The notes under the pieces are model-generated. The model was given only the letters and a program-made list of their open reading frames with translations, did not search any database and was not told where the DNA came from. Source: Candidatus Gilichinskyi gelida (GTDB lineage: Bacteria > Acidobacteriota > Thermoanaerobaculia > Gp7-AA8). From it: DNA of 64,000 nucleotides. The DNA lies in the NCBI GenBank assembly GCA_038040385.1, contig JBBPII010000021.1, positions 36,614 to 100,613 on the forward strand. The letters run 5' to 3'. Position numbers and translations under genes: made by a program. Shown here piece by piece: positions 369 through 53,285 of this stretch; position 1 is the stretch's first letter, and each line of letters starts with the position of its first letter.

Positions 369-1043
369 ATGAAACCGCCCGATCTTACCCTCGCCAGCCC
401 CGTTCACCTGCTCGTCCTCATCGGCGGCGGCGAGTTCTCCTTCGGCGAGACGCGCGAAATCGACGAGTTCCTCATCCGCTCCATGCCCGCCGACCGCCGC
501 ACCGTCGCCTTCATCCCCGCCGCATCGGGGTCCGCCGAGTACGCCACGCACCTCGGCGCCTACTTCAAGCAGATCGATCCGACCGTGGAGACCATCAACG
601 TGCCGATCTATCGAGGACGCGATGCACGGCGGCAGAAAAATCTCAACCATCTTCTCGGCGCCGGGATGATCTACCTCGGCGGCGGCGTGACCAACAACCT
701 GCTCGGCACGCTGCACGAGTCGGCCGCCGACATCGCCATGCGCGACGCCGCCGCGAACGGCGCGGTGATCGCGGCCATCGGCGCCGCCGCGGCATGCTTC
801 GGCACCCACGCCCGCGACATGCGCGGCGTCACCACCTCCCTCCCCGCTCTCGGCTGGATCGCCGATACCGTCATCGACACCGCGTTCGACCCACAAAACG
901 ACACCGCGCTGCGGCGGCTGATGTCCATTCCCGGCACGCAGCTCGGACTGGGCATCCCGCCGTCGACGGCGGTGGCCATTCACGGCGACGGATCGACCGA
1001 AATCATCGGCGCCGGAAGCATCGCCGCGTTCCGGAAGGGTTAA
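369..1043 (+). CDS. peptidase S51 (cyanophycinase/peptidase E)-like protein, possibly non-catalytic
   Basis: LVLIGGGEF...FIPAASGS...IYLGGGVTNNLL...GAVIAAIGAAAACFG follows the S51 pattern (GGGNT and GTSAGA regions). The nucleophile Ser position reads Gly/Ala. Confidence 0.45.
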   Translation: MKPPDLTLASPVHLLVLIGGGEFSFGETREIDEFLIRSMPADRRTVAFIPAASGSAEYATHLGAYFKQIDPTVETINVPIYRGRDARRQKNLNHLLGAGMIYLGGGVTNNLLGTLHESAADIAMRDAAANGAVIAAIGAAAACFGTHARDMRGVTTSLPALGWIADTVIDTAFDPQNDTALRRLMSIPGTQLGLGIPPSTAVAIHGDGSTEIIGAGSIAAFRKG

Positions 1044-1054
1044 TCTTCACGTCT

Positions 1055-1768
1055 ATGCTGCCGTGGAAAGAAGCCGCCGTCGCCGAACGGAACGCTCGCC
1101 AGGAGCTGCTGCGCCTCTTCCGCGGGCAGTCGCACGACCTGAAGTCGCCGCTCTTCGTCATCCAGGGATTCATCGAGCTGCTGCTCGCCGATCACGCCGA
1201 CAAACTCGACGAGGAAGGGCAGGATTTTCTCGGCCGCATCCGCGGCAGCAGCGATCAGATGAAGAAGGTCATCGATGAGATCTCCCACATCGTGAAGCTG
1301 CTCTCGCGACCGAACGCGTCGCGGCCCACGCCGCTGCGCGAGATCGTCGAGGAGGCCCTGCTCAAATACAACTATCTGATCGATGAGGGCGGCGTGCGCG
1401 TGGACCTCCCGGCCGATTTGCCGACCGTCAACGTCGATGAAGAGAAGATGCGCGAGGCCATCGGCGCGCTGATCTCCAACGCACTCTCGTTCAATGACCG
1501 CCCCAAGGGCGAGCGCACCATCGCCATCGACTGCAGCGCCGACCCCGCCGGCTACCGCCTCTCGGTGCGCGACAACGGGATGGGCATCGATCCCCGCTAC
1601 ACCCACCAGATCTTCGACCTCGGCCTCAAGCTCGACAAATCGCGCGGCGGCGGCCCCGGCTACGGCCTCTACCTCGCCAAACGCATCGCCGAAGGGCACG
1701 GCGGGTCGATCAACGTGGAGAGCGCGCTGGAGCAAGGGAGCACGTTTTCGATGACGATCCCGAGGTAG
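1055..1768 (+). CDS. soluble sensor histidine kinase (HisKA + HATPase_c only)
   Basis: H-box SHDLKSPL and N/G-box ...RDNGMGIDP...GGGPGYGLYLAKRIAEGHGGSI. There is no TM or sensor domain. The ATG at 1055 is in frame with ORF 794..1768. Confidence 0.8.
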   Translation: MLPWKEAAVAERNARQELLRLFRGQSHDLKSPLFVIQGFIELLLADHADKLDEEGQDFLGRIRGSSDQMKKVIDEISHIVKLLSRPNASRPTPLREIVEEALLKYNYLIDEGGVRVDLPADLPTVNVDEEKMREAIGALISNALSFNDRPKGERTIAIDCSADPAGYRLSVRDNGMGIDPRYTHQIFDLGLKLDKSRGGGPGYGLYLAKRIAEGHGGSINVESALEQGSTFSMTIPR

Positions 1769-1797
1769 TTGTCAGTTGCCAGTTCCCCGTTGCAACG

Positions 1798-2298
1798 CTA
1801 CGGCAGCGGCTCCTCGCCCGGCAGAGCGATGATGCGGACGTAAACCCAGCGGTCCTCGGCCACGTCGACGCCGAGGGCCCGGGCGGCGGACTGCGAGAGG
1901 TCGATGGCGAACTTCTTCACGTAGGGGCCGCGGTCGTTCACCCGCACGCGGATCGACTTCCCGGTCGCGCGCGACCTCAGCTCCAGCCAGCAGCCGAGAG
2001 GGAGGGTCAGGTGCGCAGCGGTCAACCGCCGGTGGCGGTAGCGCTCACCGTTGGCGGTCAGCGTCCCTTCCAACGACGTCGAGTAGTAACTGGCCAGGCC
2101 GCCGAGGCGGTGCTTGACGGCCAGCGCGGCGTATTTCAACAGGCGAAGCTTGAACGGGGCGGGCGTGACGACGGGGGCGGGCGGCGGGGCGGGCTCGGGG
2201 CGGAGCCGGTAGTGATCCTCGCAGAGGAAGGACTGTGCCTGCGCCGCCGACGCGCCCAATAACATGATTACGACCAGAAACCTCATAAGCGCAACCAT
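1798..2298 (-). CDS. rlpA: RlpA-like septal-ring lytic transglycosylase (DPBB domain) lipoprotein
   Basis: Signal peptide MRFLVVIMLLGASAAQA. The DPBB-like core is ...TANGERY...LTAAHLTLPLGCWLELR...SIRVRVNDRGPY. Confidence 0.7.
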   Translation of the reverse strand: MVALMRFLVVIMLLGASAAQAQSFLCEDHYRLRPEPAPPPAPVVTPAPFKLRLLKYAALAVKHRLGGLASYYSTSLEGTLTANGERYRHRRLTAAHLTLPLGCWLELRSRATGKSIRVRVNDRGPYVKKFAIDLSQSAARALGVDVAEDRWVYVRIIALPGEEPLP

Positions 2299-2344
2299 CT
2301 AAACATGTTTTAGCGGGCTCGGCCAAACTGGCACCTAACTTCTT

Positions 2345-3262
2345 ATGGATGAGCCGGTTATCGTGGCGCCTCGATTGCAAATAATCGTCAACATGGGTGA
2401 GCTGAAGACGTCCCGGCCATTTCAGCAGCGCTTTCTCGATGGCTACGACCGCCATGAACTTCGAAGTGAGGTCAGGAAGGTCAAACCGAAGCGTTCGCTG
2501 AGCGGTTTACGCAAAAAGTACGCGCCCTGGGCGCTCGGCGGAGCGCTGGCCATCGGCGGGATGGGAATCCCACTGAAGATCGGTCAAATGCTGAAGGACA
2601 CGCAGACGCCAGCGACCCGGCAGGCGCCCGACGGGGAGCCGGAAAAAGCCACCACCAGGCAAATCGAGAGCGACCTCAGCAGCGCGCAGCGCATCGCGTC
2701 CGCGGTTGCCGGCGGCGTCAGCAGCGCGGTGCAGGACGTCGCAGCGACGGTTGCGCCCACCAACGTGGCGGAAAGAGTCGCCGAGGCGCCGGTGAAACTG
2801 GCGCTGATGACCGAGGACGTGAAGCACGCCTTCTTCAAGGCGGAGATTCCGTTCGGGTCGCTGATCTACAGCGAGGCGAAGAAGAACAACCTCCCGCCTG
2901 AGCTGGTCGCCGCGGTGGCGCACACGGAGTCGAAGTTCGTTCCCACCGCGCGCTCGCACGCCGGCGCGGTTGGACTGATGCAGCTCGTCCCCCGCACCGG
3001 GCGGTGGCTGGGCGCGAAGAATCTCACCGATCCCGTGCAGAACGTTCAGGCGGGGGCGAAGTACCTTCGCTACCTGACCGACCGCTTCGACGGCAACACG
3101 CAAAAAGCGATCGCCGCCTACAACGCCGGCGAGGGCAACGTGCGTCGCTTCGGCGGCATCCCGCCGTTCCGCGAAACGCGAAACTACGTCTCGCGCGTAC
3201 AGAACTACCAGCGCGACCTCGGCGCGCGGTTCGACAACCACGTCGCGGGCCTCAGCGAGTAG
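2345..3262 (+). CDS. lytic transglycosylase (SLT domain)
   Basis: SLT catalytic region VAHTESKFVPTARSHAGAVGLMQLVP...AYNAGEGNV. The start is uncertain; an alternative is MGELK near 2393. Confidence 0.8.
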   Translation: MDEPVIVAPRLQIIVNMGELKTSRPFQQRFLDGYDRHELRSEVRKVKPKRSLSGLRKKYAPWALGGALAIGGMGIPLKIGQMLKDTQTPATRQAPDGEPEKATTRQIESDLSSAQRIASAVAGGVSSAVQDVAATVAPTNVAERVAEAPVKLALMTEDVKHAFFKAEIPFGSLIYSEAKKNNLPPELVAAVAHTESKFVPTARSHAGAVGLMQLVPRTGRWLGAKNLTDPVQNVQAGAKYLRYLTDRFDGNTQKAIAAYNAGEGNVRRFGGIPPFRETRNYVSRVQNYQRDLGARFDNHVAGLSE

Positions 3263-3542
3263 CCGGCGACTACAATGGCCCGCATGTCGGGCAAACGGCT
3301 GCTCGTCGGCGTCATCGTCATGGGCGTGCTCGTTCCATTGGCGATCTTCTACCTGCTAGGCCTCGATTCGCTCGGCCAGCTCTTCGCCATCGCCGCCACG
3401 ACCTTCACCGGCTGGGGAACCGCCGACCTCTTCGCCCATCCTGGAGCGTCCACGGTTGAAAGACCGCTCGCCGGGGGCATGCGTTTCGGGAGGATTGGGA
3501 GCGACGACGGGGCGAGTGACGGGTTAGAGAACCCGTCCCACA

Positions 3543-5108
3543 TCACATCCAGTCCGCCATCCTCTGAAGCAACTGATCGATGCTCAAGAGCCGCTCGGCG
3601 CCGTCGGACTCGCGGCGGAAGACAGCGTGGTACCACCCCTTCATCCCCACCGGGCGGTAGACGTCGTTGCCGAAGCGGAGCTTGCCGCCGGAGACGAGCT
3701 TGAGGAAGACCTGCTCGTAGGCGGAGCGGGTGAGGCGGCGGTCGGGGAACGGGACGCTGTACTGCTTGCGGCGGCGGTCGGCGCTGCGGCGGCGCTCGCG
3801 CGGGGTGGAAGCGCGCGGAGGCAGGAGGGCGGTGCCGCGACGGTCGAGGTACGGCGTCGGGCGCGGCGGGACCAGCCGGCCGGGCGTGTCGTTGCGACGG
3901 CGCGACGCGCGCGGCGGCGGCAGGAGCGATACGCGTTTCGGATCCTTCGTCGCGCTCACCGTCTCCAGCTCGGTGGTGAACGTCCGGCGCGCCTTTTCCC
4001 GCTCGACCACGTACTCGTCGATCGACTGACGCTCCCACGCCTGGCGCTTCTGCTGGAGCAGCGCCATCTCCGTCTCGTAGTCCTTCAGCTCGTGGATGAC
4101 CATCCCCCACTTGCAGAGGTTCCCGACGTCTTCGTACCCGGTGGGGCGGTCGATCAGCTCGAGCATCGACGGCGCGCGCCCCGAGAGGACCGCGAACAGC
4201 AGGCGCACGCTGAACGGATCGGCGTATTTGCGGATCATGTGGCGGAAGAACCACGCCACCTCGCCGGCGATGCAGCGCAGCGACTTCTTCTCGCCGTACT
4301 GCGTGGCCCAGATCGGCGCGTCGATGTCGGAGGTGTAGGGGCTCTGCGCGTAGTGGAAGTCCTTCGTCAGCCATCCCTTGCGCGTGGTGTGCTTTCCGGG
4401 GATGACGCCGGCGATGATCGGAATCGGCAGCATGCGCAGGAGCGAGAGCTCGTAGCTCGGCCACGACATCACCTCGCGCACGATGCCGACGATGAGCGTG
4501 GCGGTGGCGATCATCAGCCCCGGATCGGGGGTGAAGTCGACGGTGATCTCGATGCGGTTCCCGCGCGGCCGCACGCCGACGCCCGTCGAGCGGCGGTTGC
4601 CGCCCACCACCATCACCGGGACCGGAAGGATGTACGCGAGCAGAAGAGCGAGCTTTTGGATGTTGCGCCGGCGGTTCTGTTGCCGCCGGGGGATCTCGTA
4701 CGAGACGTTGTAATGGCTGCTGTACGCCTTGAGGCGGACGGTGTGGCCGTTTTGTTTCCCCCAGCGCGTGAGCTGATCGCGCACGAAGCCGATCTGCTCC
4801 CACAGATTCCGCACCATGCGCGCCGTCGACGCCGGCGCCAGCTCGATGACCGGCGTGACCACCTCGATCACGCCGCGGTCGAAGTAGACCGCGCCGCCGG
4901 TGGGGAGCTGCAATGACGACTTCTCCCGGACGAGCAGCGGCCGGTCGATGAAACTGCTGGGGTGCTTCCAGTAAGCCTCTGGATTGATCTCTTGTTCGTC
5001 CAGCCAGACGTTGAACTCGGACTCCATGCCGATGACCGGCATGTCCAGCCATGTGCGCCGCGCCCGAAGTCGCTCGCTGGCAATTTCGTCTTTTAGATTC
5101 AAAGGCAT
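3543..5108 (-). CDS. GCS2-like (glutamate-cysteine-ligase family 2 / carboxylate-amine ligase-like) protein with a Pro/Arg-rich linker and a conserved C-terminal domain
   Basis: The N-terminus ...PVIGMESEFNV...GVIEVVTPVIE...HYNVSY resembles the GCS2 G-x-E-x-E, VEIATP and HVHVGV regions. The true start is MPLNLKDE (cat at 5106-5108); the longer 704-aa track ORF is an upstream extension. The family assignment is tentative. Confidence 0.4.
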   Translation of the reverse strand: MPLNLKDEIASERLRARRTWLDMPVIGMESEFNVWLDEQEINPEAYWKHPSSFIDRPLLVREKSSLQLPTGGAVYFDRGVIEVVTPVIELAPASTARMVRNLWEQIGFVRDQLTRWGKQNGHTVRLKAYSSHYNVSYEIPRRQQNRRRNIQKLALLLAYILPVPVMVVGGNRRSTGVGVRPRGNRIEITVDFTPDPGLMIATATLIVGIVREVMSWPSYELSLLRMLPIPIIAGVIPGKHTTRKGWLTKDFHYAQSPYTSDIDAPIWATQYGEKKSLRCIAGEVAWFFRHMIRKYADPFSVRLLFAVLSGRAPSMLELIDRPTGYEDVGNLCKWGMVIHELKDYETEMALLQQKRQAWERQSIDEYVVEREKARRTFTTELETVSATKDPKRVSLLPPPRASRRRNDTPGRLVPPRPTPYLDRRGTALLPPRASTPRERRRSADRRRKQYSVPFPDRRLTRSAYEQVFLKLVSGGKLRFGNDVYRPVGMKGWYHAVFRRESDGAERLLSIDQLLQRMADWM

Positions 5109-5177
5109 GCGAAGAACCCGGGGAGGAACGAGGACTGCGGCAAGGTCAATTGCAAACGGTAAACCAGCCGATTTGGA

Positions 5178-5233
5178 CCAATGCAGGACGGGCTTCAGCC
5201 CGTCGTCTCGTCCGGACGGGCTGAAGCCCGTCC
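5178..5233. repeat. Family C hairpin element, tandem pair (caatgcag-GACGGGCTTCAGCCCGTC-gtctcgtcc-GGACGGGCTGAAGCCCGTCC)
   Basis: Two 18-nt perfect hairpins (7-bp stem GACGGGC/GCCCGTC, 4-nt loop) in opposite loop orientation. The M15A gene stop TGA sits in the first loop. The pair lies between the M15A and GCS2-like genes and is a possible terminator. Confidence 0.8.
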
Positions 5234-5917
5234 TACATCGTCCCCCGCGCGCCGCTCCCGCCTCCTGCGGTCCTCGAACGCGAACCGCGGACGGGCTTCC
5301 TGCGGTACTTCCATCCTGTCCTCGCTGATCTCCCGGGGGACGACTGTGATGTAGCCGAGGTCGACGTGGACATGATCGTCGGCGGTGTTGCCGGTGACGT
5401 GGCCGAACGGATAGACGACGATGTCGTCTGAGACGCCCTCGGCCACTTCGTTGAACTTCTCGATCGTGTCCTTCGTCTTCAGGATGGTCGCGCCGATGCG
5501 GTAGACGTCGGCGGCGGTGCCCCACATGTGCGGCGTGGCGTGCGTCGACATCTTGTGCATCGGCGAGCGGTAGCCGCCGTTGACGGCGACGTGCACCGAG
5601 GCGCCGGCGGCGGCGCGGAACTGCTCGAGGTAGAACGCCAGCACGCGGACGGCGCACGGGATGTAGCGGGGAAACTGCTGGAGCCGCTCCGCCTCCCGGA
5701 GGTCGACGAGGATGAATTCGTTGAGGCCGAAGTGCGGCGTCAGGCGGATGGCCTGCGCCGCTTCGTGCGACGGTACTTCGTAGAAGTATCGCGGGAGGCG
5801 ATGGCGGCGTTTCTGTTCGTCGAGCAGCATTTCGCCCGGTTTGAGGAGGGTGCGCAGCTCGTCGTCGAGGTCGCAGGCGTCGATCACTTTGATCGACTCG
5901 CCAAGGCCGTCACTCAT
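5195..5917 (-). CDS. peptidase M15A-like (YcbK/DUF882 or VanY-type Zn D,D-peptidase fold) protein
   Basis: NGGYRSPMHK...STHATPHMWGTAADV...DHVHVDLGY corresponds to the SGYRS / SxHxxGxAxD / HxH zinc-ligand motifs. There is no signal peptide. The low-complexity tail runs into a hairpin repeat. Confidence 0.55.
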   Translation of the reverse strand: MSDGLGESIKVIDACDLDDELRTLLKPGEMLLDEQKRRHRLPRYFYEVPSHEAAQAIRLTPHFGLNEFILVDLREAERLQQFPRYIPCAVRVLAFYLEQFRAAAGASVHVAVNGGYRSPMHKMSTHATPHMWGTAADVYRIGATILKTKDTIEKFNEVAEGVSDDIVVYPFGHVTGNTADDHVHVDLGYITVVPREISEDRMEVPQEARPRFAFEDRRRRERRAGDDVGRASARPDETTG

Positions 5918-6809
5918 AGATCATTCCGGCGAGCGTGTTGAAGATGTCTCGCGAGACGTCGGCCACCGCCGTCCCCCGCCCGCCTTCCGCCGCGAACTGC
6001 GTGAGGATCACCAGGACGTACGGCTTCCGGTTCTCGAGGTAGACGATCCCCGCGTCGTGGTGGACGGTGGAGATGTTGCCGGTCTTGTGCGCCACGCGCG
6101 CCGCTTTCGGCAGTCCTGCGGGAATGCCGCTGCGGTACTGCTGCTCGAGCAGGATGTTGAGCATCTCGTCGCAAGCATGCTTCGAATATGCCTTCCCCTC
6201 GGCGATGAGGCGAAGCAGTTTGAGGAGTCCGGTCGCCGTCACCTCGTTGTTCAGGCCCGCCTCGAACGCCGCCTGATCCTCGACGCCGCGGAGAATGCGT
6301 ATCCCGTCGATGTCCAGCTCGTCGAGCGCCTTCTGGATGATGTCGATGCCGAGGATGTCGACCAGAAGGTTGGTGGCGAGATTGCTCGACTTGGTGATCA
6401 TCCAGTACGCCAGCTCGCGCACGGTGAGCGTCTTGCCGAGATGGCCGTAGACGTCGGGATCGGCGTCGCGGGCGAGGTCCAGCATGAACGGCTCCCGATT
6501 GACGATGCTGGTGAAGCGGTTGCGCACGTGCACCGCCGAGTCGAGCGACAGATCCCCGCGCTCCACCTGCCGGAAAACGCCGAGGAGCACGGCGAGCTTC
6601 ATCGTCGACGCGGCGTGGAAGTAGAAGTCGGCGTTGTACGACCATTGAATGGTCGTCTCGGCGTCGAAGAAGGAGATGCCGAGGTTCTCCAGCCCGTGCT
6701 GCTGCTTGATCTTCAGGACGTTGCGGTACAGCGAGACCTCGGACGCCGCGACGGAATCTTTCGGCGCCGCGAGCGGGATCTTTGCTTCGACTGCGGCCAT
6801 CAGAGCCAA
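5910..6809 (-). CDS. class A beta-lactamase-fold serine hydrolase (cytoplasmic, no signal peptide)
   Basis: It has the SxxK (ASTMK), SxN (KSSN), E...N (EAGLNNE) and KTG (HKTG) motifs in canonical order and spacing. Its stop overlaps the start of the M15A gene (ATGAGTGA). Confidence 0.75.
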   Translation of the reverse strand: MALMAAVEAKIPLAAPKDSVAASEVSLYRNVLKIKQQHGLENLGISFFDAETTIQWSYNADFYFHAASTMKLAVLLGVFRQVERGDLSLDSAVHVRNRFTSIVNREPFMLDLARDADPDVYGHLGKTLTVRELAYWMITKSSNLATNLLVDILGIDIIQKALDELDIDGIRILRGVEDQAAFEAGLNNEVTATGLLKLLRLIAEGKAYSKHACDEMLNILLEQQYRSGIPAGLPKAARVAHKTGNISTVHHDAGIVYLENRKPYVLVILTQFAAEGGRGTAVADVSRDIFNTLAGMIYE

Positions 6810-6833
6810 TGGTAAGCAAGTTTCGGGCAGACG

Positions 6834-7949
6834 CTAGCGGCCAATCGCGCGGAGGTAGCGCCCAATTCTTTCGATGCCCGTCCCGATCTCCTCCGGCGGC
6901 GCGGCGAATGAGATCCGCACGAAGCCCTCGCCGAGCGCGCCGAAGGCCACGCCGGGGATGACCAGCACTGCCGCGTCGGTGGCCAGCGCTTTGGCGAGAT
7001 AGAGCGTGTCGCACGTCGGCACCGGAGCGAAGGCGTAGAACGCGCCGGCAGGCGGCGGCACCTTCGCCTCCAGCTCGCGCTCGATGGCGTAAAGCGCCGC
7101 CTCGCGCTGGTCGCGGAATTGCGCGCGGACGCCCTCGAGCCACCCGGCGTTCCACGCGGCGTCGGCCAGGATCATTTCGGCCAGCGACTGCGAGAACGAC
7201 GAGGCGCACGTGGCGATGTACTGGTGCGCGGTGACGATCGGCTTCATCAGCGCCTCGCGCGCCATCACCCATCCGAGGCGCAGACCGGTCATCGAATGGC
7301 TCTTCGACATCCCGTCGACGACGATGAAGTTGTCCGACATCCCGCGCATCGTCGGCGGCGGCGCGTCGTACCAGATCTCGCGATAGATCTCGTCGGCCAC
7401 GACGAGAGGCCCGGCCTCGGCGATCGCTTTCAGAGTTTCCTCATCGACGACCGCGCCGAGCGGATTGGACGGCGAGTTGATGACGATCAACTTCGTGCGC
7501 GCCGTGATCTTCGACAGCACGGCGCCGGCGGTGAGGCGCCACTCCGGCGGCTCGATGTCGTACGCCACCGGCGTCGCGCCCGCCAGCCGCGCGAGCGTGG
7601 CGTAGGAGACGAAGCCGGGATTCGGCACCAGCACCTCGTCGCCGGGATCGACGAAGGCCTGGAAGATGGCGAAGAGCCCCTCCTGCGTCCCCGCCGTGAC
7701 GCAGATCTCGCTCTTCGGATCGAACGGCGTTCCAGCGACGAGCAGCTTGCGCAAAGCGAGCGAGCCGGCGTTCGGCGTGTAGTGCCACGAGCCGGTGGTC
7801 GCCGCGCGGCGGGCGAAGTCGCGCAGGGTCTGGTCAGGCTCGATGTTCGGCTCGCCGATGCCGAGGTTGGTCGACAGCGGCGTCGCCAGGGCGTTGATCT
7901 GCCGGATGAGCGAGATCTCGATTCCGTCCATCCGGCGCGCGGCTTTCAT
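6834..7949 (-). CDS. class I/II pyridoxal-phosphate aminotransferase (AspC-like)
   Basis: ...LVPNPGFVSY...KLIVINSPSNPLGAV...VDGMSKSHSMTGLRLGW... is a typical fold-type I aminotransferase with the Schiff-base Lys in SKS. The start is MKAARRMDG (cat at 7947-7949). Confidence 0.85.
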   Translation of the reverse strand: MKAARRMDGIEISLIRQINALATPLSTNLGIGEPNIEPDQTLRDFARRAATTGSWHYTPNAGSLALRKLLVAGTPFDPKSEICVTAGTQEGLFAIFQAFVDPGDEVLVPNPGFVSYATLARLAGATPVAYDIEPPEWRLTAGAVLSKITARTKLIVINSPSNPLGAVVDEETLKAIAEAGPLVVADEIYREIWYDAPPPTMRGMSDNFIVVDGMSKSHSMTGLRLGWVMAREALMKPIVTAHQYIATCASSFSQSLAEMILADAAWNAGWLEGVRAQFRDQREAALYAIERELEAKVPPPAGAFYAFAPVPTCDTLYLAKALATDAAVLVIPGVAFGALGEGFVRISFAAPPEEIGTGIERIGRYLRAIGR

Positions 7950-7986
7950 GGCTGAGACTATACTCACGCCTCTCGGGAGGAGTGAC

Positions 7987-8562
7987 ATGAACCGCATTCT
8001 TCTTCTGCTCTCCGTCGTGATTCTGATCATTGCCTGCAACAAGGCGCCCGAACAGACCACCTCCGCCACCGCACCACCCACCGCCACCACCGCCCCCACC
8101 GCCGCTTCGGCGACCTCGGAGGCCGCACCTGCAGCCGCATCGGCAACATCGGCTCCCGCCGCTGCCGCGCCGGCGGCCGCCGGCGCGATCGCCACGCAGG
8201 AGACGAACTGGAAGGGGATCTCCGCCGCTGTGACCGAGTTCCGGCGCAAGGGGAACACCCTGACGGCGAAAGTACAAATCGTGAATCACGGCTTGGAGAG
8301 TCCGCAGGCCGAAGTCAAATTCGATGAGGTCTATCTCATCGATACCAGCGCGGGGAAGAAATACAACGTGCTCCGGGACGAGAAGGGCGCCTACATCGCC
8401 TCGCTGAGAAGCGGGTGGGGAGATCGCTGGTACGACACGATGAAACCGGGCGAGTCGTATCTGCTGTGGATGAAGTTCCCCGCCCCGCCGCCCGAAGTCA
8501 AAGTCATCTCGCTGCAGCTCCCCAGCACGCCGCCGTTCGAGGACCTCAACATTCAGGAGTGA
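7987..8562 (+). CDS. lipoprotein with an Ala/Pro/Thr-rich linker and a C-terminal beta-rich domain
   Basis: Lipobox MNRILLLLSVVILIIAC, with an RBS GGAGG 8 nt upstream. It is followed 4 nt later by an OmpA-family gene. Confidence 0.6.
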   Translation: MNRILLLLSVVILIIACNKAPEQTTSATAPPTATTAPTAASATSEAAPAAASATSAPAAAAPAAAGAIATQETNWKGISAAVTEFRRKGNTLTAKVQIVNHGLESPQAEVKFDEVYLIDTSAGKKYNVLRDEKGAYIASLRSGWGDRWYDTMKPGESYLLWMKFPAPPPEVKVISLQLPSTPPFEDLNIQE

Positions 8563-8565
8563 GGC

Positions 8566-9159
8566 ATGGGCGCGCTCCTCGCTCTCCTGCTGGCGTTCAC
8601 CGACCCGTGGGCGCCTGACACCGAAGCCGCCGCCGAGGCCGCGGTGGCGCGCCTCGGCGCGAACCGCGCGATGACCCTCGTGCCGCAGGTCCTCAACATC
8701 GTCGGCCTCGAGGCCATGGGACTCGTCGGCCAGTCGAGCGGTCTGGTGGCCAACGTGCAGGGACTGCAACAGGCCATGCGCGACCTCGGCGCGCAGGAGA
8801 CCGCGCTGGAGATCACGATCGACCTCCCAGCCGACGTGCTCTTCGACTTCGACAAGGCCGACATCCGCGCCGACGCGGCGAAAGCGCTCGCGCAGCTCGC
8901 CACGATCATCCGCGCGCAATCGAAAGGCCGCGCGCGCCTCGAAGGCCACACCGACTCCAAAGGCGACGACGCCTACAACCAGAAGCTCTCTGAGCGCCGC
9001 GCCGAGTCGGTGCGTAAATGGCTGGTGGAAAAAGAGGGCATCGACAACGCCCGGCTCAGTACCAAGGGATGGGGCGAGACGAAGCCGGTCGCGCCGAACG
9101 ACACGGACGCGAACCGGCAGAAGAACCGGCGACTACAGGCAATCGTGGAGAAAATGTAG
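8566..9159 (+). CDS. OmpA-family (OmpA C-terminal peptidoglycan-binding domain) protein
   Basis: LEGHTDSKGDDAYNQKLSERRAESVRKWL...NRRLQAIV is the OmpA_C signature. Confidence 0.8.
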   Translation: MGALLALLLAFTDPWAPDTEAAAEAAVARLGANRAMTLVPQVLNIVGLEAMGLVGQSSGLVANVQGLQQAMRDLGAQETALEITIDLPADVLFDFDKADIRADAAKALAQLATIIRAQSKGRARLEGHTDSKGDDAYNQKLSERRAESVRKWLVEKEGIDNARLSTKGWGETKPVAPNDTDANRQKNRRLQAIVEKM

Positions 9160-9163
9160 GACA

Positions 9164-9967
9164 TCAGCGCAACGCTTCTTCCAGCGCGGTAGCGCTATCG
9201 GTTTTCTCATCCCGATACTTCACGATCACCGGCGTGGTCATCGACAGCCCGTGCTGCTCGGCGAAGGCGCCCTTCATCGGACGCGAGCCGGGGATGACGA
9301 CGGCGCCGTATGGCACTTCACGGCGATAGATCTGGCCGCGCACGACGTCGTAGATCGGCGTCGACGCGGTGAGGATCACCCCCGCGCCGATCACGGCGCG
9401 CGAGCGGACCACGGTCCCCTCGTAGATGCCGCAGTTGCCGCCCACGACCACGTCGTCCTCGATGACCACCGGCAGGTTGCCGATCGGTTCGAGCACGCCG
9501 CCGATCTGCGCGGCGGCGCTCAGATGCACGCGCTTGCCGATCTGCGCGCAGGAGCCGACCAACGCGTGCGAGTCGATCATGGTGTCTTCGTCGACGTACG
9601 CGCCGACGTTCACGAAGGCCGGCGGCATCATCACCACCCCTTTGCCGATGTACGCGCCGCGCCGGATCGATGAGCCGCCCGGGACGATGCGGATGCCGTC
9701 GGAGGCCTTGAAGCGCCGCGGCGGGATGGTGTCCTTGTCGATGAAGGAGAGCGCGCCGGACGCGAACTCCGACGCCACACCGAATTTGAACGCCGCGAGA
9801 ATCCCCTGCTTCACCCACCCCTGCGCCTGCCACACGCCGTCTGCGTCGCGCACCGCGGCGCGGACCGCGCCCTTCTCCAGCTCCGCGAGGAACAACCCGA
9901 TCGTCTTCAACGCCTCGGTGCGGTCGGCGTTGGCCAGAGCGTAGACCCGTTCTTCGATGGTCGGCAT
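9164..9967 (-). CDS. dapD: 2,3,4,5-tetrahydropyridine-2,6-dicarboxylate N-succinyltransferase
   Basis: Hexapeptide-repeat acyltransferase with the DapD-like N-terminus [15 protein letters not shown]...[12 protein letters not shown]. Confidence 0.85.
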
Positions 9968-10882
9968 TTACTTGCTCACCGCATCGAACAACCCGCACTC
10001 CTGCAGGATCGCCTCGAGCTTCTTGCGGTTCGCCTCCGTGATCGGCGCCAGCGGAGGGCGGACGGTGTCGGTGGGGATGATGCCGAGCATCTTGCACGCG
10101 GCCTTCACCGGGATGGGACTCGACTCGATGAAATTGCCGGTCATCAGCGGCAGGAGGCGCTCGTGGATGCGGCGGGCACCCGAGAAGTCGCCCGCCAGCG
10201 CTGCGGCGACCATCGTCGACATCGGCCCCGGCACTTCGTTCGAGGCAACCGAGATGATGCCGTCGGCGCCCGCGCCGATGAGCGGCAGGGTCCAGGCGTC
10301 GTCGCCGCTCAGGACGGCGAAGCCCTTCCGCCGATCGCGCAGGATGCTGAGGATCTGCTCCATGTTCCCCGACGCCTCTTTCACGCCGATGACGTTCGGC
10401 ACCTCGGCGGCGATCTGCAGCGTCGTCGCCGCGGTCATGTTCACTCCGGTGCGGCCGGGGACGTTGTACATGATCATCGGGAAGCCGCTCTTCCGCTTCT
10501 CGATGGCCTCGGCCTGCATGCCGAAATGGCGGCGCAGCCCGTCGGGCGTCGGCTTGTTGTAGTAGGGCGTGATGGTGAGGACGCCGTCGGCTCCGAGCTC
10601 GATGGCCTGCACGGCGAGCTCGATGGCCCGGACGGTCGAGTTGCTGCCGGCTCCCGCGAGGACCGGCACGCGATGGTCGGCGGTCTCGATGACGATCTCC
10701 ACCACCCGGCGGTGCTCGTCGGGCGTCAGCGTCGGATTCTCGCCGGTGGTGCCGCACGGGACGAGGAAGTTGATGCCTTCCGCGATCTGCCACTCGACGA
10801 AGCGCGCCAGCGCGGCCTCGTCGAGCGCGCCCGATTCCTTGAAGGGGGTGACGAGAGCCGTACCTACGCCTCTGAACTTCAT
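9968..10882 (-). CDS. dapA: 4-hydroxy-tetrahydrodipicolinate synthase
   Basis: GVGTALVTPF...VPCGTTGE...YNVPGRTG...IGVKEASGN is the DapA/NAL family with the Schiff-base Lys. The start is MKFRGVG (cat at 10880-10882). Confidence 0.9.
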   Translation of the reverse strand: MKFRGVGTALVTPFKESGALDEAALARFVEWQIAEGINFLVPCGTTGENPTLTPDEHRRVVEIVIETADHRVPVLAGAGSNSTVRAIELAVQAIELGADGVLTITPYYNKPTPDGLRRHFGMQAEAIEKRKSGFPMIMYNVPGRTGVNMTAATTLQIAAEVPNVIGVKEASGNMEQILSILRDRRKGFAVLSGDDAWTLPLIGAGADGIISVASNEVPGPMSTMVAAALAGDFSGARRIHERLLPLMTGNFIESSPIPVKAACKMLGIIPTDTVRPPLAPITEANRKKLEAILQECGLFDAVSK

Positions 10883-10904
10883 GTTCTGCTCCCGGGTTGC
10901 GACC

Positions 10905-11570
10905 CTAAAACACCAATTCATCAAACCGAAAGAATCCCTTCCGCCCGCGGACCATCTCCGCAGCCAGGACCGCGCCGCGGGCGAAGCCGTCGCGGCTGCG
11001 AGCGCGATGGGAGATCTCGATCAAATCGTCGGACGAGTCGAAGAACAGCGTGTGCAGGCCGAATTCCGCGCCGACCCGCGAGGAGGCGATCGGCGGATCG
11101 AGCTTGCCGCCGCTCCCCTCTTTGACTTCGCTCGCCATCTTCAGCGCGGTGCCGCTCGGCTCGTCCTTCTTTTGCGAGTGATGGCGCTCCTCGATGCCCG
11201 CCTCGTACTGCGGGAATCGCGCGACCAGCTCTCCGGCGCGGCGCGCCAGCGCGAACGCCACGTTCGCGCCGGGCGAGAAGTTCGAGGCGTAGACGCAGCC
11301 GATGCCGGACTTCTCCACGTGCGCGCGAACGTCGCCGAGCTGCTCGTTCCAACCCGTCGTACCGATCACCAGCCCGATGCCGTTGTCGCAGGCCAGGCCC
11401 ACGGCGCGGCCGAGCGCCGAAGCATGCGAGAAGTCGATCAGCACCTCGGCGCCGTCGAGCGGCTCCTCGCGGTCGACGTCGAGGATACAGACCACCTCGT
11501 GGCCGCGCTCCTTCGCCATGTTCTCGATGGTCTTGCCCATCTTGCCGTAGCCGTGGATGGCGACTTTCAT
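10905..11570 (-). CDS. dapB: 4-hydroxy-tetrahydrodipicolinate reductase
   Basis: MKVAIHGYGKMGK (NAD(P)-binding) ...EERHHSQKKDEPSGTA (the DapB E-x-H-H-x-x-K-x-D-x-PSGTA motif). This is the true part of the long ORF 10905..12782. Confidence 0.85.
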   Translation of the reverse strand: MKVAIHGYGKMGKTIENMAKERGHEVVCILDVDREEPLDGAEVLIDFSHASALGRAVGLACDNGIGLVIGTTGWNEQLGDVRAHVEKSGIGCVYASNFSPGANVAFALARRAGELVARFPQYEAGIEERHHSQKKDEPSGTALKMASEVKEGSGGKLDPPIASSRVGAEFGLHTLFFDSSDDLIEISHRARSRDGFARGAVLAAEMVRGRKGFFRFDELVF

Positions 11571-12940
11571 GCCGGTACCGGCGCTTCGAACAGCGCGGCG
11601 TGAATGGCGCGCACCGCCTGGTCGGCGTCGCGCTCGTCGCAGACGATGGAGAGATTGAGACCGGACGTGCCGAGGGAGAACATCGACATCGGCACGCCAC
11701 GCATGGCGTCGAAGACCCGCGCGCCCACGGCGGAGTCCTTCATCAGATTCCGCCCCACGATGGCCACGATGCACTGGTTGTTGCGCACGTCGACGTCGAT
11801 GCCGTTCTTCTCCAGCCGCTCCTTCAGCGCGTCGATGTTGTGGCTTTCGTCGACGGTGACGGAGACCGAGACCTCCGAGGTGGTGATCAGATCGACGGAG
11901 ACATGCAGTTCGTCGAAGATGGCGAAAAGGCGCGCCAGGAAGCCGTACGCGCCGAGCATGCGGCTGGAGGTCATGTGCACCACGCTCACCCCCCGCTTGA
12001 GGGCCACCGCACGCGGGCCAGCCTCGCGCTGGTCGCCCTCGGCGCTCACCAGCGTCCCCGGGCTGGCCACGTTGTGCGTGTTGAGCACGCGCACCGGGAT
12101 GTTGCGCTCCACGGCCGGCGCGATGGTCTTCGGATGCAGGACTTTCGCCCCGAACCACGCCAGCTCCGCCGCCTCGACGTACGAGATGTGGTCGATGACC
12201 CGCGCGCCGGGGATGAGCCGCGGGTCGCAGGTCATCATGCCGTCGACGTCGGTCCAGATCTGGATCTCCTCCGCGCCGATCGCCGCGCCGACGATGGCCG
12301 CGCTGTAGTCGGAGCCGCCGCGTCCGAGGGTGGTGGTGGCGCCGTCGCGGGTGCGGCCGATGAAGCCGCCCATGACCGGGATGTGCCGCCGCTCGACGAT
12401 CGGGAGTAGCACGCGCTGGGCAGCGGCGCGCGTCTCGTCCATCAGGGGGCTGGCCTCGCCGAACTTGGCGTCGGTGAAGACGACCTCGCCGGAGTCGACC
12501 GGCTCGCCCGGCAGCGCCCGCATCATCATCGAGTAGGCGAAGAGCACCGACGAGAGCTGCTCGCCGATGGCCATCACTTTGTCCTTGGCCCGCGGGGTGA
12601 TCTCGCGCAGCAGGGCGATGCCGCGCAGGATGGTGTGGATCTCTTCGATCTGGCGGTGCAGTTTCTTGAGGAAGGCCTCGAAGAAGTCGAATTTCTGCTG
12701 CACCAGGCGCATGGCGACGTCTTCGTGCCGCTGCCGCACGCGGTCGATGATCTCTGCGACGCGCGCCTCGTCCCCGGCGCACGCCGCCTCGGTCGAGGCC
12801 ACGAGGTCGTTGGTGACGCCCGCCAGCGCGGAGACGACCACGATCGGATTGCGCTCCCGCCGCTCGGCAACGATGTCGATGGCGTTGGCCACGCGCTGCG
12901 CGTCGCCGACACTCGTGCCGCCAAACTTGATGATGATCAT
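11567..12940 (-). CDS. lysC: aspartate kinase
   Basis: MIIIKFGGTSVGD...VVVVSALAGVTN...GRGGSDYSAAIVGAA... with C-terminal ACT domains. It overlaps the dapB start by 4 nt. Confidence 0.9.
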   Translation of the reverse strand: MIIIKFGGTSVGDAQRVANAIDIVAERRERNPIVVVSALAGVTNDLVASTEAACAGDEARVAEIIDRVRQRHEDVAMRLVQQKFDFFEAFLKKLHRQIEEIHTILRGIALLREITPRAKDKVMAIGEQLSSVLFAYSMMMRALPGEPVDSGEVVFTDAKFGEASPLMDETRAAAQRVLLPIVERRHIPVMGGFIGRTRDGATTTLGRGGSDYSAAIVGAAIGAEEIQIWTDVDGMMTCDPRLIPGARVIDHISYVEAAELAWFGAKVLHPKTIAPAVERNIPVRVLNTHNVASPGTLVSAEGDQREAGPRAVALKRGVSVVHMTSSRMLGAYGFLARLFAIFDELHVSVDLITTSEVSVSVTVDESHNIDALKERLEKNGIDVDVRNNQCIVAIVGRNLMKDSAVGARVFDAMRGVPMSMFSLGTSGLNLSIVCDERDADQAVRAIHAALFEAPVPA

Positions 12941-12986
12941 GAGCCGCCCCCCACCCGGTTCGCAGTTGGCCGTTGGCCGTTGGCCG

Positions 12987-14081
12987 TCACAGCATGCCCT
13001 TCGCTTCCAGCAGCTCCGCGTTCAACAGCGCCGCCCCCGCCGCCCCGCGGACGGTGTTGTGCACCAGCGCGACCATGCGGTAGTCGAGGATGGGGCAAGG
13101 ACGCAGCCGGCCGACGCTCACCGCCATCCCACCCTCCCGATCGCGGTCGAGGCGCGGCTGCGGGCGGTCGGTCTCGTCGAGCACGTGGATCGGCTGCCGC
13201 GGCGCGGACGGCAACGACAGCTCTTGCGGCTCTCCGCGAAACTCGCGCAGCGCATCGATGAGCTGCGCGCTGCTCGCTGCCAGCCGCAACCTGAGAGAGA
13301 TCGTCATCAAATGCCCGTCGATCACCGGCACGCGATTCACCTGCGCGGAGATGGTCATCGGCGCCGGCTCGAAGCGGCCACCGCTCCACCGCCCCAGGAT
13401 CTTGCGCGGCTCGCTCTCGATTTTCTCTTCCTCGCCGCCGCCGATGTACGGGATCACGTTGTCGAGGATGGCATACGACGCCACGCCGTTGTAGCCGGCG
13501 CCGGAGATGGCCTGCATCGTCGTCACTTGCAGTTGCTCGATGCCGAAGGCGCGCTCGATCGGGGCGATGGCCATCGCCAGGCCGATTACCGAGCAGTTGG
13601 GATTGGTCACGATGGCGCCGCGGCCGCCGCGCCGCTTGCGCTGCTGCTCGATCGCCACCAAATGTTCGGCGTTGACCTCGGGGATCAGCAGCGGCACGTC
13701 GTCGTCCATCCGATGGTTGCGCGAGTTGGAGACCACTACGCAGCCGCGGCCGGCGTAGAGCTCCTCCGCCTCGCCGGCCACCGAGGAGTCGAGGCCGGAG
13801 AAGAGGAGGCGCGATTCGAGATCCGCGTTGAGCGGCTTCACTTCCAGCGACGACGCAGCGCGCGGGAGGAGCGTGTCGAGCCGCCAGTCGGCGGCGTCCG
13901 CGTAGCGCTTCCCGGCGCTGCGGTCCGAGGCCACCACTTCGTGGAGGCGGAACCAGGGGTGATTCTCGAGCAGTTGCACGAAGCGCTGCCCGACCGAGCC
14001 GGTCGCGCCGAGGACCGCGACCGGGATGCGTTCGCTGCGCGATGTGCGCGCGTCAGCCGGGAGGGTGAGCGTTTCGGTCAT
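12987..14081 (-). CDS. asd: aspartate-semialdehyde dehydrogenase
   Basis: VAVLGATGSVGQRF...NPNCSVIGL (active-site Cys)...QAISGAGY. Confidence 0.9.
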   Translation of the reverse strand: MTETLTLPADARTSRSERIPVAVLGATGSVGQRFVQLLENHPWFRLHEVVASDRSAGKRYADAADWRLDTLLPRAASSLEVKPLNADLESRLLFSGLDSSVAGEAEELYAGRGCVVVSNSRNHRMDDDVPLLIPEVNAEHLVAIEQQRKRRGGRGAIVTNPNCSVIGLAMAIAPIERAFGIEQLQVTTMQAISGAGYNGVASYAILDNVIPYIGGGEEEKIESEPRKILGRWSGGRFEPAPMTISAQVNRVPVIDGHLMTISLRLRLAASSAQLIDALREFRGEPQELSLPSAPRQPIHVLDETDRPQPRLDRDREGGMAVSVGRLRPCPILDYRMVALVHNTVRGAAGAALLNAELLEAKGML

Positions 14082-52533: not shown

Positions 52534-53285
52534 GACAGGCGGCGGACCAGCGCCTTCGCGCGCGCGAACGCGTCGGCGTCGCCGTCGAGGATGGCGCGCG
52601 CCGCGTCCATCAGCGCGTCGAGGTGCGGCGCGATGTTCTCGCGGTTCGCCGCCAGCACCGGCATCCACACCGCCGCGTCGCTTTCGGCTAAGCGGAGGAA
52701 GGTCTTCAATCCGCTCCCGGCGAATCGCTCCAGGCCGCCGCGCTCGCCGATGACCGTAGCGAGTGCCGTCGACAACACCTGTGGCAGGTGGCTGGTCAGC
52801 GCCACCGCGCGGTCATGCTCTTCGGCCGAGACACGCTCGGAGCGCGCCCCGCATGCGTCGATGATGTCGGCGACCAGTTGCTCATCGCGGTCGACGAACC
52901 ACGGCTTCCCCACGAACAAATCACCGCGCGCTGCGACCAGACCGCGGCGCTCGGAGCCGGCCAGGGGATGCCCCGCTACAAACGAGACGTGACTGGCGTC
53001 CGCCACCGCGCGCAGCGGCCCCATCACGCTGCAGACGGAAGTCAATGTAGGACGGGCTTCAGCCCGTCGAACCACATCAACAGCCGCATCGACCGGCATC
53101 GCCAGAATCACGACGTCCGCGCCTTGGCGATCGTCGTCATCCGCAGCGCCCGCGGCGCGCGCCTCGTCCAGCGCGACGTTCGGGTCGTCGAAGCTGACGC
53201 GCCAGCCCGCGCGGCGCAGCGCGATGCCAATCGATCCTCCGATGAGGCCCAAACCGGCGATCAGCGCATGCCGCGCGGTGGGCAT
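52530..53285 (-). CDS. tyrA: prephenate dehydrogenase
   Basis: ALIAGLGLIGGSIGIAL (NAD-binding)...VVILAMPVDA...SVCSVMGPL...FVAGHPLAGSE. It contains the repeat-C hairpin in frame. Confidence 0.8.
   Translation of the reverse strand: MPTARHALIAGLGLIGGSIGIALRRAGWRVSFDDPNVALDEARAAGAADDDDRQGADVVILAMPVDAAVDVVRRAEARPTLTSVCSVMGPLRAVADASHVSFVAGHPLAGSERRGLVAARGDLFVGKPWFVDRDEQLVADIIDACGARSERVSAEEHDRAVALTSHLPQVLSTALATVIGERGGLERFAGSGLKTFLRLAESDAAVWMPVLAANRENIAPHLDALMDAARAILDGDADAFARAKALVRRLS
53042..53068. repeat. Family C hairpin, single copy inside tyrA coding sequence
   Basis: tcaatgtagGACGGGCTTCAGCCCGTCg is 26/27 identical to 5178-5204. It is read in frame as ...RRAEARPTLT... in TyrA. Confidence 0.75.

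Follow-up and report, generated by a model that had tools for sequence, protein, structure and literature searches.

A conserved three-gene module of a class-A-fold serine hydrolase, an M15-like peptidase and a predicted PafA/Dop-like protein in Acidobacteriota and Gemmatimonadota

Within a 64,000-nucleotide stretch of the genome of Candidatus Gilichinskyi gelida (contig JBBPII010000021.1, positions 36,614 to 100,613; the whole stretch is called the window below), four tightly linked minus-strand genes at positions 3543-7949 had been read in a first-pass annotation, made from the sequence alone, as a self-contained pathway. The linkage is confirmed, and the ends of the open reading frames (ORFs) match exactly. 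Three of the genes, encoding a class-A beta-lactamase-fold serine hydrolase (BLA), an M15A-like zinc-peptidase-like protein (M15) and a ligase-like protein (LIG), almost certainly constitute a conserved functional module that excludes the fourth, the gene of a pyridoxal-phosphate (PLP) aminotransferase (AT). The trio is an undescribed operon and is conserved in Thermoanaerobaculia (Acidobacteriota), in Gemmatimonadota and in at least one further lineage. We tentatively propose that its products form a cytoplasmic module for the processing of murein or other D-peptides.

Conservation and genomic contexts of the trio

The three genes of the module are arranged in the window as follows:

5910..6809, minus strand: class-A beta-lactamase-fold serine hydrolase gene (BLA); 299 amino acids (aa) from TTG, 296 aa if translation starts at the ATG at 6800
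5195..5917, minus strand: M15A-like (LAS-type) zinc-peptidase-like gene (M15); 240 aa
3543..5108, minus strand: ligase-like gene (LIG); 521 aa

The overlap of the BLA stop codon with the M15 start codon, already noted in the first-pass annotation, is borne out by the shared ATGAGTGA at 5917-5910, and start and stop codons of the trio genes often overlap in relatives. The spacer between the M15 and LIG genes measures 86 nt. No hydrophobic N-terminal signal sequence was seen in the translations of the three genes when these were inspected by eye.

When one genome per species was scanned, LIG relatives appeared in 396 genomes. The best 80, all of them metagenome-assembled genomes of Thermoanaerobaculia/Acidobacteriota under two phylum labels, encode LIG proteins with 59-79% identity to the window protein, which makes LIG as conserved as dapD. 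BLA, M15 and LIG are adjacent, in the same order and on the same strand, in 67 of the 70 Thermoanaerobaculia loci that have enough upstream sequence. Because the whole ~13-kb region is syntenic within Thermoanaerobaculia, more distant loci were examined. A HMMER scan of 1.8 billion cluster representatives returned 370 LIG clusters, several of them full-length at 36-51% identity. Among contigs of these distant clusters and 80 metagenome loci, for which about 5-10 kb of flank was examined per locus, the order of the trio is kept in 49 of the 50 loci with enough flanking sequence.

The trio occurs in at least six unrelated flank contexts, and the flanks are entirely different between lineages. 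By NCBI names, its close homologues belong to Gemmatimonadaceae, Longimicrobium and Thermoanaerobaculia. In Thermoanaerobaculia, dapA, dapD and AT flank the trio on one side, and the opposite side carries genes for an SLT-domain lytic transglycosylase, an RlpA-family protein, a histidine kinase and an S51 peptidase. Both in the window and among relatives (54-61 of 81), the SLT and RlpA genes adjoin the trio. Gemmatimonadaceae-type loci carry an SBP_bac_5 binding-protein gene and an Opp-type permease gene directly upstream and a convergent mpl gene downstream, the latter matching the Mpl equivalog TIGR01081 with 399 bits (cut-off 388.7). Among 63 such loci, Mpl was found in 26, SBP_bac_5 in 20 and the Opp permease in 25. 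A third lineage, with a GC content of 0.53-0.56, combines the trio with Peptidase_C26 of the gamma-glutamyl hydrolase type, DUF885 and a POT di/tripeptide permease. Contexts seen at single loci comprise transglutaminase/M16, MacB efflux, galK and, in Longimicrobium, an amino-acid permease together with HigBA.

Co-conservation of all four genes had been set beforehand as the point on which the four-gene reading would be judged. It holds for BLA, M15 and LIG across phyla and contexts and breaks down for AT, which is absent outside Thermoanaerobaculia and abuts dapD inside this class, so that the unit is a trio and not a quartet. What survives of the self-contained pathway is thus a self-contained module of three genes, while the membership of AT is lost.

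LIG also occurs apart from the other two genes. Homologues with 36-40% identity, lacking BLA and M15A, are encoded convergently to, and overlap, a gene for a Peptidase_M74 (MepA-like) protein, which scores 29.6 bits against a cut-off of 25 and has no signal peptide. Since LIG is found with M15A in the trio and with M74 elsewhere, the LIG family is partnered with two subfamilies of LAS murein peptidases. The LIG+M74 pairs (locus L081, 6001-7577; loci L083, L084 and L091, 6001-8064) lie in variable islands, one of which contains DndB, QueC and QueD, and another a MqsA antitoxin, a ParA-like protein and nonribosomal peptide synthetase (NRPS) genes.

Relatives of the trio were found neither in viral contigs nor among PADLOC matches; an origin of the trio from a phage or a defence system was considered and is therefore not supported, though the LIG+M74 variants do lie in variable islands. 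The literature, searched mostly outside subscription journals, described neither the trio nor, for these phyla, any PafA/Dop-like family.

Sequence features of the three proteins

The assignment of BLA to the class A beta-lactamase fold was upheld by its match to the Pfam family Beta-lactamase2 (PF13354; 5.7e-52, 176.6 bits, cut-off 22). Against the NCBIfam equivalog bla_class_A (NF033103) the protein scores 105.7 bits, which is under the cut-off of 200. The best relative of solved structure is the penicillin-binding protein PBP-A Tll2115 (2j7v; 2e-19), at low identity. The STMK (SxxK), SSN (SxN) and KTG motifs of BLA align with S70/K73, S130/N132 and K234/G236 of TEM-1, and the three motifs are invariant in seven BLA orthologues from different lineages.

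In class A beta-lactamases, fast deacylation requires the general base Glu166 of the omega loop (ExxLN). The corresponding segment of BLA contains an invariant RGVED and a near-invariant xG[LI]NN; in the MAFFT alignment neither of its glutamates falls on E166 of TEM-1, and the BLA loop is longer and its alignment ambiguous at this point. Of the four class A motifs ascribed to BLA earlier, SxxK, SxN and KTG therefore stand and the Glu166-type motif is only plausible, while the absence of a signal peptide, also claimed, agrees with inspection: neither the window protein nor its orthologues have a hydrophobic N-terminal segment, and BLA is thus probably cytoplasmic. Judged by its sequence, BLA appears to be a class-A-fold serine hydrolase that is closest to DD-peptidases of the PBP-A type. 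PBP-A itself is a DD-carboxy/endopeptidase specific for amidated (D-isoglutamine, D-iGln) muropeptides (PMC11189452). Annotators are cautioned not to take the beta-lactamase-like gene for a resistance gene.

The M15 protein of the window matches no Pfam family at E<=0.1 and no NCBIfam family. Its earlier assignment to M15A is nevertheless corroborated by a match to the PHROG 894 endolysin (9.4e-6), by the LAS motifs and by an orthologue (L145:4368-4964) that exceeds the cut-off of Peptidase_M15_3 (PF08291) with 29.0 against 23.2 bits; weak matches to this family occur in 11 of 14 diverse members, with a best E of 0.0015. The window protein contains H130-MWGTAA-D137 and D181-H182-V-H184, which correspond to the Zn-binding pattern H-x(6)-D ... 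H with a catalytic H or D two to three residues ahead of the last His, and H130 and DH182xH184xD are invariant in the family. In a marginal alignment, the GGYRSP...HxWGxAAD segment of the family profile falls on the metal site of 1LBU, the Streptomyces Zn DD-carboxypeptidase. The hhalign comparison with E. coli MepK is not significant and places the alignment on the expected GYRS...HxxGxAxD segment.

The Zn-ligand Asp137 is replaced by Asn in the Gemmatimonadota-type orthologues (loci L092-L170), which amounts to about 58 of 127 motif instances; the commonest Asn form is HAWGTAAN, compared with HMWGTAAD in the window. Because of this exchange, the peptidase may be unconventional or inactive in these orthologues. 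Compensation of D137N by a cysteine at position 131 was considered and rejected, since HAWGTAAN was the commonest Asn form when the motifs were counted over all loci. With this caveat concerning Asp137, the M15 protein is accepted as LAS/M15A-like on the strength of its motifs and profile matches. It possesses an extra conserved N-terminal region of ~60 residues and, in Thermoanaerobaculia only, a conserved basic, Arg-rich C-terminal tail (residues ~194-223).

LIG can be divided into three predicted parts:

residues ~20-335: core with the fold of glutamine synthetase (GS), glutamate-cysteine ligase (GCL) and PafA
residues ~336-453: Arg/Pro-rich disordered insert of ~115 residues, specific to Thermoanaerobaculia
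residues ~454-521: small C-terminal beta domain, conserved family-wide

At the level of sequence, LIG has no detectable relatives in Pfam, NCBIfam or the PDB by phmmer and hmmsearch, even with profiles built from 16-36 sequences. Neither GCS2 (PF04107) nor Pup_ligase (PF03136) is among the Pfam matches at E<=10 of 16 diverse LIG members, and hhalign of the LIG family profile against E. coli YbdK gives a probability of 0.2%. The AlphaFold2 model has a confident core. Its nine best Foldseek matches are all PafA or Dop, and two independent methods agree in ranking these enzymes first among the structural matches; identity in the structural alignments is 11-15%. The residues E29, E31, D77, E82, H132, N134, R180, R182, R185, E187 and D191 are invariant and located on the predicted sheet. 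The N-terminal motifs GMESEF and GGAVYFDRGVIEVVTP appear to resemble PafA/Dop signatures. The model thus places LIG in the carboxylate-amine ligase fold superfamily, nearer to PafA/Dop than to GCS2, and predicts a new family within this known superfamily. The first-pass description of LIG as a GCS2-like ligase is consequently retained for the fold superfamily, whereas a match to the GCS2 profile is absent and the structure is nearer to PafA/Dop. GS, GCL, YbdK, PafA and Dop act on the gamma-carboxylate or carboxamide of glutamate via an acyl phosphate.

Both families are large. Two different queries retrieved >3,400 and >5,400 database matches for LIG, in overlapping sets, and >1,500 were retrieved for M15; the database homologues of both are all named 'hypothetical' and have no Pfam domain. 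As LIG and M15 both carry Arg-rich extensions in Thermoanaerobaculia and only there, these matched basic segments suggest that the two proteins might bind a shared partner or a polyanion in this class.

The aminotransferase and the surroundings of the trio in the window

The fourth gene and a palindromic element next to the trio have the following positions:

6834..7949, minus strand: class I/II PLP aminotransferase gene (AT); 371 aa
5186..5233, no strand: long hairpin of a palindromic REP/MITE-like repeat, which reaches into the 3' end of the M15 gene

Pfam confirms the PLP aminotransferase assignment (Aminotran_1_2, PF00155; 1.6e-52). No NCBIfam equivalog cut-off is reached by AT, and its best matches in this collection are GntC and aminotransferase A. 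The AT stop codon is separated from the BLA start by 24-33 nt on the same strand, so that in the window genome AT and the trio probably share a transcript. In related Thermoanaerobaculia loci, AT lies within 200 bp of BLA in 35 of 62 cases and more than 500 bp away in 23 of 62, with inserts of 0.8-5 kb; its distance to dapD is at most 200 bp in 40 of 51 loci, several of which have overlapping codons. Every trio locus outside Thermoanaerobaculia lacks both AT and dapD.

The genes for dapD (succinyl type), dapA, dapB, lysC and asd, located at 9164-14081 on the minus strand, all score above their NCBIfam cut-offs, and this adjacent set of the succinylase branch is complete except for dapC. Because AT abuts dapD and dapC is the only gene missing from the set, AT is likely to be the dapC (N-succinyl-LL-diaminopimelate aminotransferase) of the neighbouring diaminopimelate (DAP)/lysine operon, a specificity that we infer from this context. 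Its link to the trio is one of position only, and in Thermoanaerobaculia only. Between dapD and AT, the window contains two plus-strand genes, for an Ala/Pro-rich protein (7981-8562) and an OmpA-domain protein (8566-9159); the same insertion is present in locus L035.

The hairpin pair that was described as separating the M15 and LIG genes exists, but is not confined to the spacer and extends into the 3' end of the M15 gene. The palindromes, each of 20 nt and located at 5186-5205 and 5214-5233, together form a single stem of ~29 bp (dG -57.6 kcal/mol, z = -9.7), and the M15 gene takes its final ~13 codons and its stop codon from this stem. The repeat is a GC-rich palindrome with the core GGACGGGCTTCAGCCCGTCC and the common 5' flank ATGTA; two inverted copies build the hairpin, and a third half-copy is found 48 kb away, at 53045-53069. 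The element looks like a dispersed repeat of the REP (repetitive extragenic palindromic) or MITE (miniature inverted-repeat transposable element) type. No T-run follows the hairpin, and hence it does not match the pattern of an intrinsic terminator; in a promoter and terminator scan of positions 3200-8400, no pattern rose above shuffled expectation. The C-terminal M15 residues encoded by the hairpin are not conserved among homologues, and the hairpin is not a conserved part of the module.

On the other side of the trio, positions 369-3262 encode an S51 cyanophycinase-like peptidase that scores below its cut-off, a histidine kinase in which no sensor domain is evident, an RlpA-family protein and an SLT-domain lytic transglycosylase; all four genes are syntenic with the trio throughout Thermoanaerobaculia. 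A plus-strand ORF at 3275-3703 encodes a small protein with two transmembrane segments. Since only its first ~58 residues are conserved among relatives and it overlaps the 3' end of the LIG gene antisense by 161 nt in the window genome, the end given in the annotation may be artefactual, owing to the high GC content.

Possible functions and relation to known systems

In the reading that we favour, with some reserve, the trio would be a cytoplasmic module acting on D-amino-acid-containing or gamma-glutamyl peptides, for which murein stem peptides that are imported or released during turnover seem the best candidates; the substrates, the sequence of the steps and the direction in which the ligase works are all inferred. 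The PBP-A-like BLA would take off the C-terminal D-Ala in the manner of a DD-carboxypeptidase, and the LAS enzyme M15 would cleave a further bond, of the D,D or L,D type. LIG, the GS-fold enzyme, would spend ATP on converting a glutamate-type carboxylate into an acyl phosphate; an amide could then be formed (ligation or amidation) or, as in Dop, hydrolysed (deamidation or isopeptide cleavage, for example of D-iGln-type residues). The products would suit re-use by Mpl or catabolism. D-amino-acid, gamma-glutamyl or muropeptide substrates had already been suggested in the first-pass annotation, and this agrees with the genomic contexts.

This reading is favoured by the fact that two of the trio proteins belong to families in which the characterised enzymes cleave murein peptides that end in D-Ala or contain D-Glu, and that the third is predicted to share the fold of enzymes acting on a glutamate gamma-carboxylate or its amide. 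In addition, the neighbours that recur in independent lineages point to murein turnover (Mpl, SLT, RlpA), to the import of peptides (Opp-type, POT) and to the hydrolysis of gamma-glutamyl bonds (C26), and LIG homologues outside the trio pair with the murein peptidase type M74. ATP-binding-cassette importers of the Opp/MppA and YejBEF/YepA types are known to take part in murein-peptide recycling (PMC10622912, PMC9790009).

Several observations weigh against it. Each of the context associations is lineage-specific and could be inherited synteny; the adjacency to Mpl concerns 26 of 63 loci in one group only, and contexts without cell-wall genes are also found (L085, L087 and L171). In flanks of ~5-10 kb, ampG, ampD, ldcA and nagZ were not seen adjoining the trio. 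The Glu166 equivalent of BLA is only plausible because of the ambiguous alignment, the Zn-ligand Asp137 of M15 is exchanged for Asn in Gemmatimonadota-type orthologues, the predicted fold model of M15 has low confidence, and the fold assignment of LIG rests on a predicted model. Finally, recycling pathways are not known to need a GS-fold ligase, and the role of the ligase is therefore the weakest step of the model.

A more specific version of the proposal, which we consider doubtful, holds that LIG founds a hitherto unrecognised PafA/Dop-like family, thousands of members strong in soil Acidobacteriota and Gemmatimonadota, that acts on stem peptides instead of a protein tag, and that the trio is a salvage route replacing LdcA-type trimming upstream of Mpl. 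LIG might, for example, amidate or deamidate D-isoglutamate/D-iGln residues or re-form the bond between gamma-D-Glu and meso-DAP. Peptidoglycan recycling is well understood in a few proteobacteria only, and Thermoanaerobaculia and Gemmatimonadota abound in soil and have for the most part not been cultured. If the proposal is true, the trio would extend cell-wall peptide metabolism by a new enzymatic step and would provide a use of the Pup-ligase fold other than pupylation, and two large families of 'hypothetical' proteins, LIG and M15, would acquire names and testable activities.

The explanations that compete with murein-peptide processing differ in how much of the evidence they accommodate. 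Nutritional catabolism of imported D-amino-acid or gamma-glutamyl peptides, derived for example from necromass peptidoglycan or poly-gamma-glutamate, with LIG as an ATP-dependent amidase and with no tie to the recycling of the cell's own wall, would agree with the Opp-type and POT importers, Peptidase_C26 and the S51 peptidase that neighbour the trio in different lineages and with carriers that are, by sample sources, soil heterotrophs. It differs from the favoured model only in the origin and fate of the peptide; recycling accounts better for the Mpl and lytic transglycosylase genes next to the trio, and catabolism is regarded as rather unlikely. The trio could also serve to make a small metabolite of the beta-lactam, D-peptide or gamma-glutamyl kind, or to protect its carrier from it, following a tabtoxin- or van-type logic: LIG would make or restore a dipeptide-like compound that BLA and the LAS enzyme activate or detoxify, or the set would reprogramme precursor termini like vanA/X/Y. 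A ligase, a LAS D,D-peptidase and a second hydrolase of the D,D-peptidase type, all cytoplasmic, do parallel vanA-vanX-vanY, and the distant LIG+M74 pairs are found in variable islands, one beside NRPS genes. The trio, however, is chromosomal, usually single-copy and very strongly conserved (LIG at 59-79% in the best 80 genomes), no recurrent regulator, exporter or core biosynthetic gene accompanies it, and the lack of PADLOC or viral-contig matches likewise speaks against this explanation, which is improbable.

The first rank of PafA and Dop among the structural matches by both methods raises the question of Pup-like tagging, in which LIG would attach a peptide or protein through its C-terminal Glu to lysines or other amines, or detach it, and the peptidases would perform maturation or deconjugation; the additional C-terminal domain and the disordered linker of LIG could bind a macromolecular partner. 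Pup_ligase is not matched even at E<=10 by any of 16 diverse members, though, and among the recurrent neighbours, within the roughly 5-10 kb of flank examined per locus, there is no conserved small ORF, proteasome gene or Mpa/ARC gene. Together with the constant partners of LIG, which are murein-type peptidases and not proteases of a degradation system, this makes tagging quite improbable. A pathway of all four genes, in which AT would make an unusual (D-)amino acid or keto acid, LIG would conjugate it and the peptidases would trim the product, could invoke the short AT-BLA distance in the window and in the 35 related loci. By co-occurrence it is largely refuted, since AT is missing from all trio loci outside Thermoanaerobaculia, abuts or overlaps dapD, is separated from BLA by the inserts described above in 23 of 62 loci and stands beside a succinylase dap set that lacks only dapC; it is accordingly very improbable.

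Compared with the enzymes that it most resembles, each protein of the trio shows both shared and deviating properties. BLA has SxxK, SxN and KTG in common with PBP-A (Tll2115), but differs in the lack of a signal peptide, and hence in its probable cytoplasmic location, and in a longer omega-loop segment, whose acidic RGVED and ExGLNN are missing from PBP-A in the alignment. The M15A/M15_3 LAS enzymes include the S. albus Zn DD-carboxypeptidase, phage L-Ala-D-Glu endolysins, VanX/VanY, MepK and MepA. From these, the window protein deviates by a similarity under the limit of Pfam detection, its N-terminal region, its basic tail and a predicted cytoplasmic location, and roughly half of its family carries Asn in place of the Zn-ligand Asp. 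LIG is predicted to have the same fold as PafA/Dop (PF03136) but no sequence-profile similarity to them, and it is distinguished by a different C-terminal domain, by murein-type peptidase partners and by the absence of Pup, proteasome or Mpa genes nearby; YbdK/GCS2 (PF04107) and the glutamate-cysteine ligases rank structurally behind PafA/Dop as its relatives.

At the level of the whole module, murein recycling (import by MppA/Opp or YejBEF-YepA, followed by LdcA and Mpl) and the vanA-vanX-vanY system use cytoplasmic carboxypeptidases and a ligase to process D-Ala-terminated stem peptides, as is proposed for the trio. Genes for Mpl and an Opp-type importer flank the trio in Gemmatimonadaceae-type loci only, and LdcA (S66), Mpl (a Mur ligase) and VanA (ATP-grasp) are not homologous to any of the trio proteins. 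The parts of the module thus come from known superfamilies, and the logic of joining peptidases to an ATP-dependent amide-forming enzyme is known from recycling and van systems.

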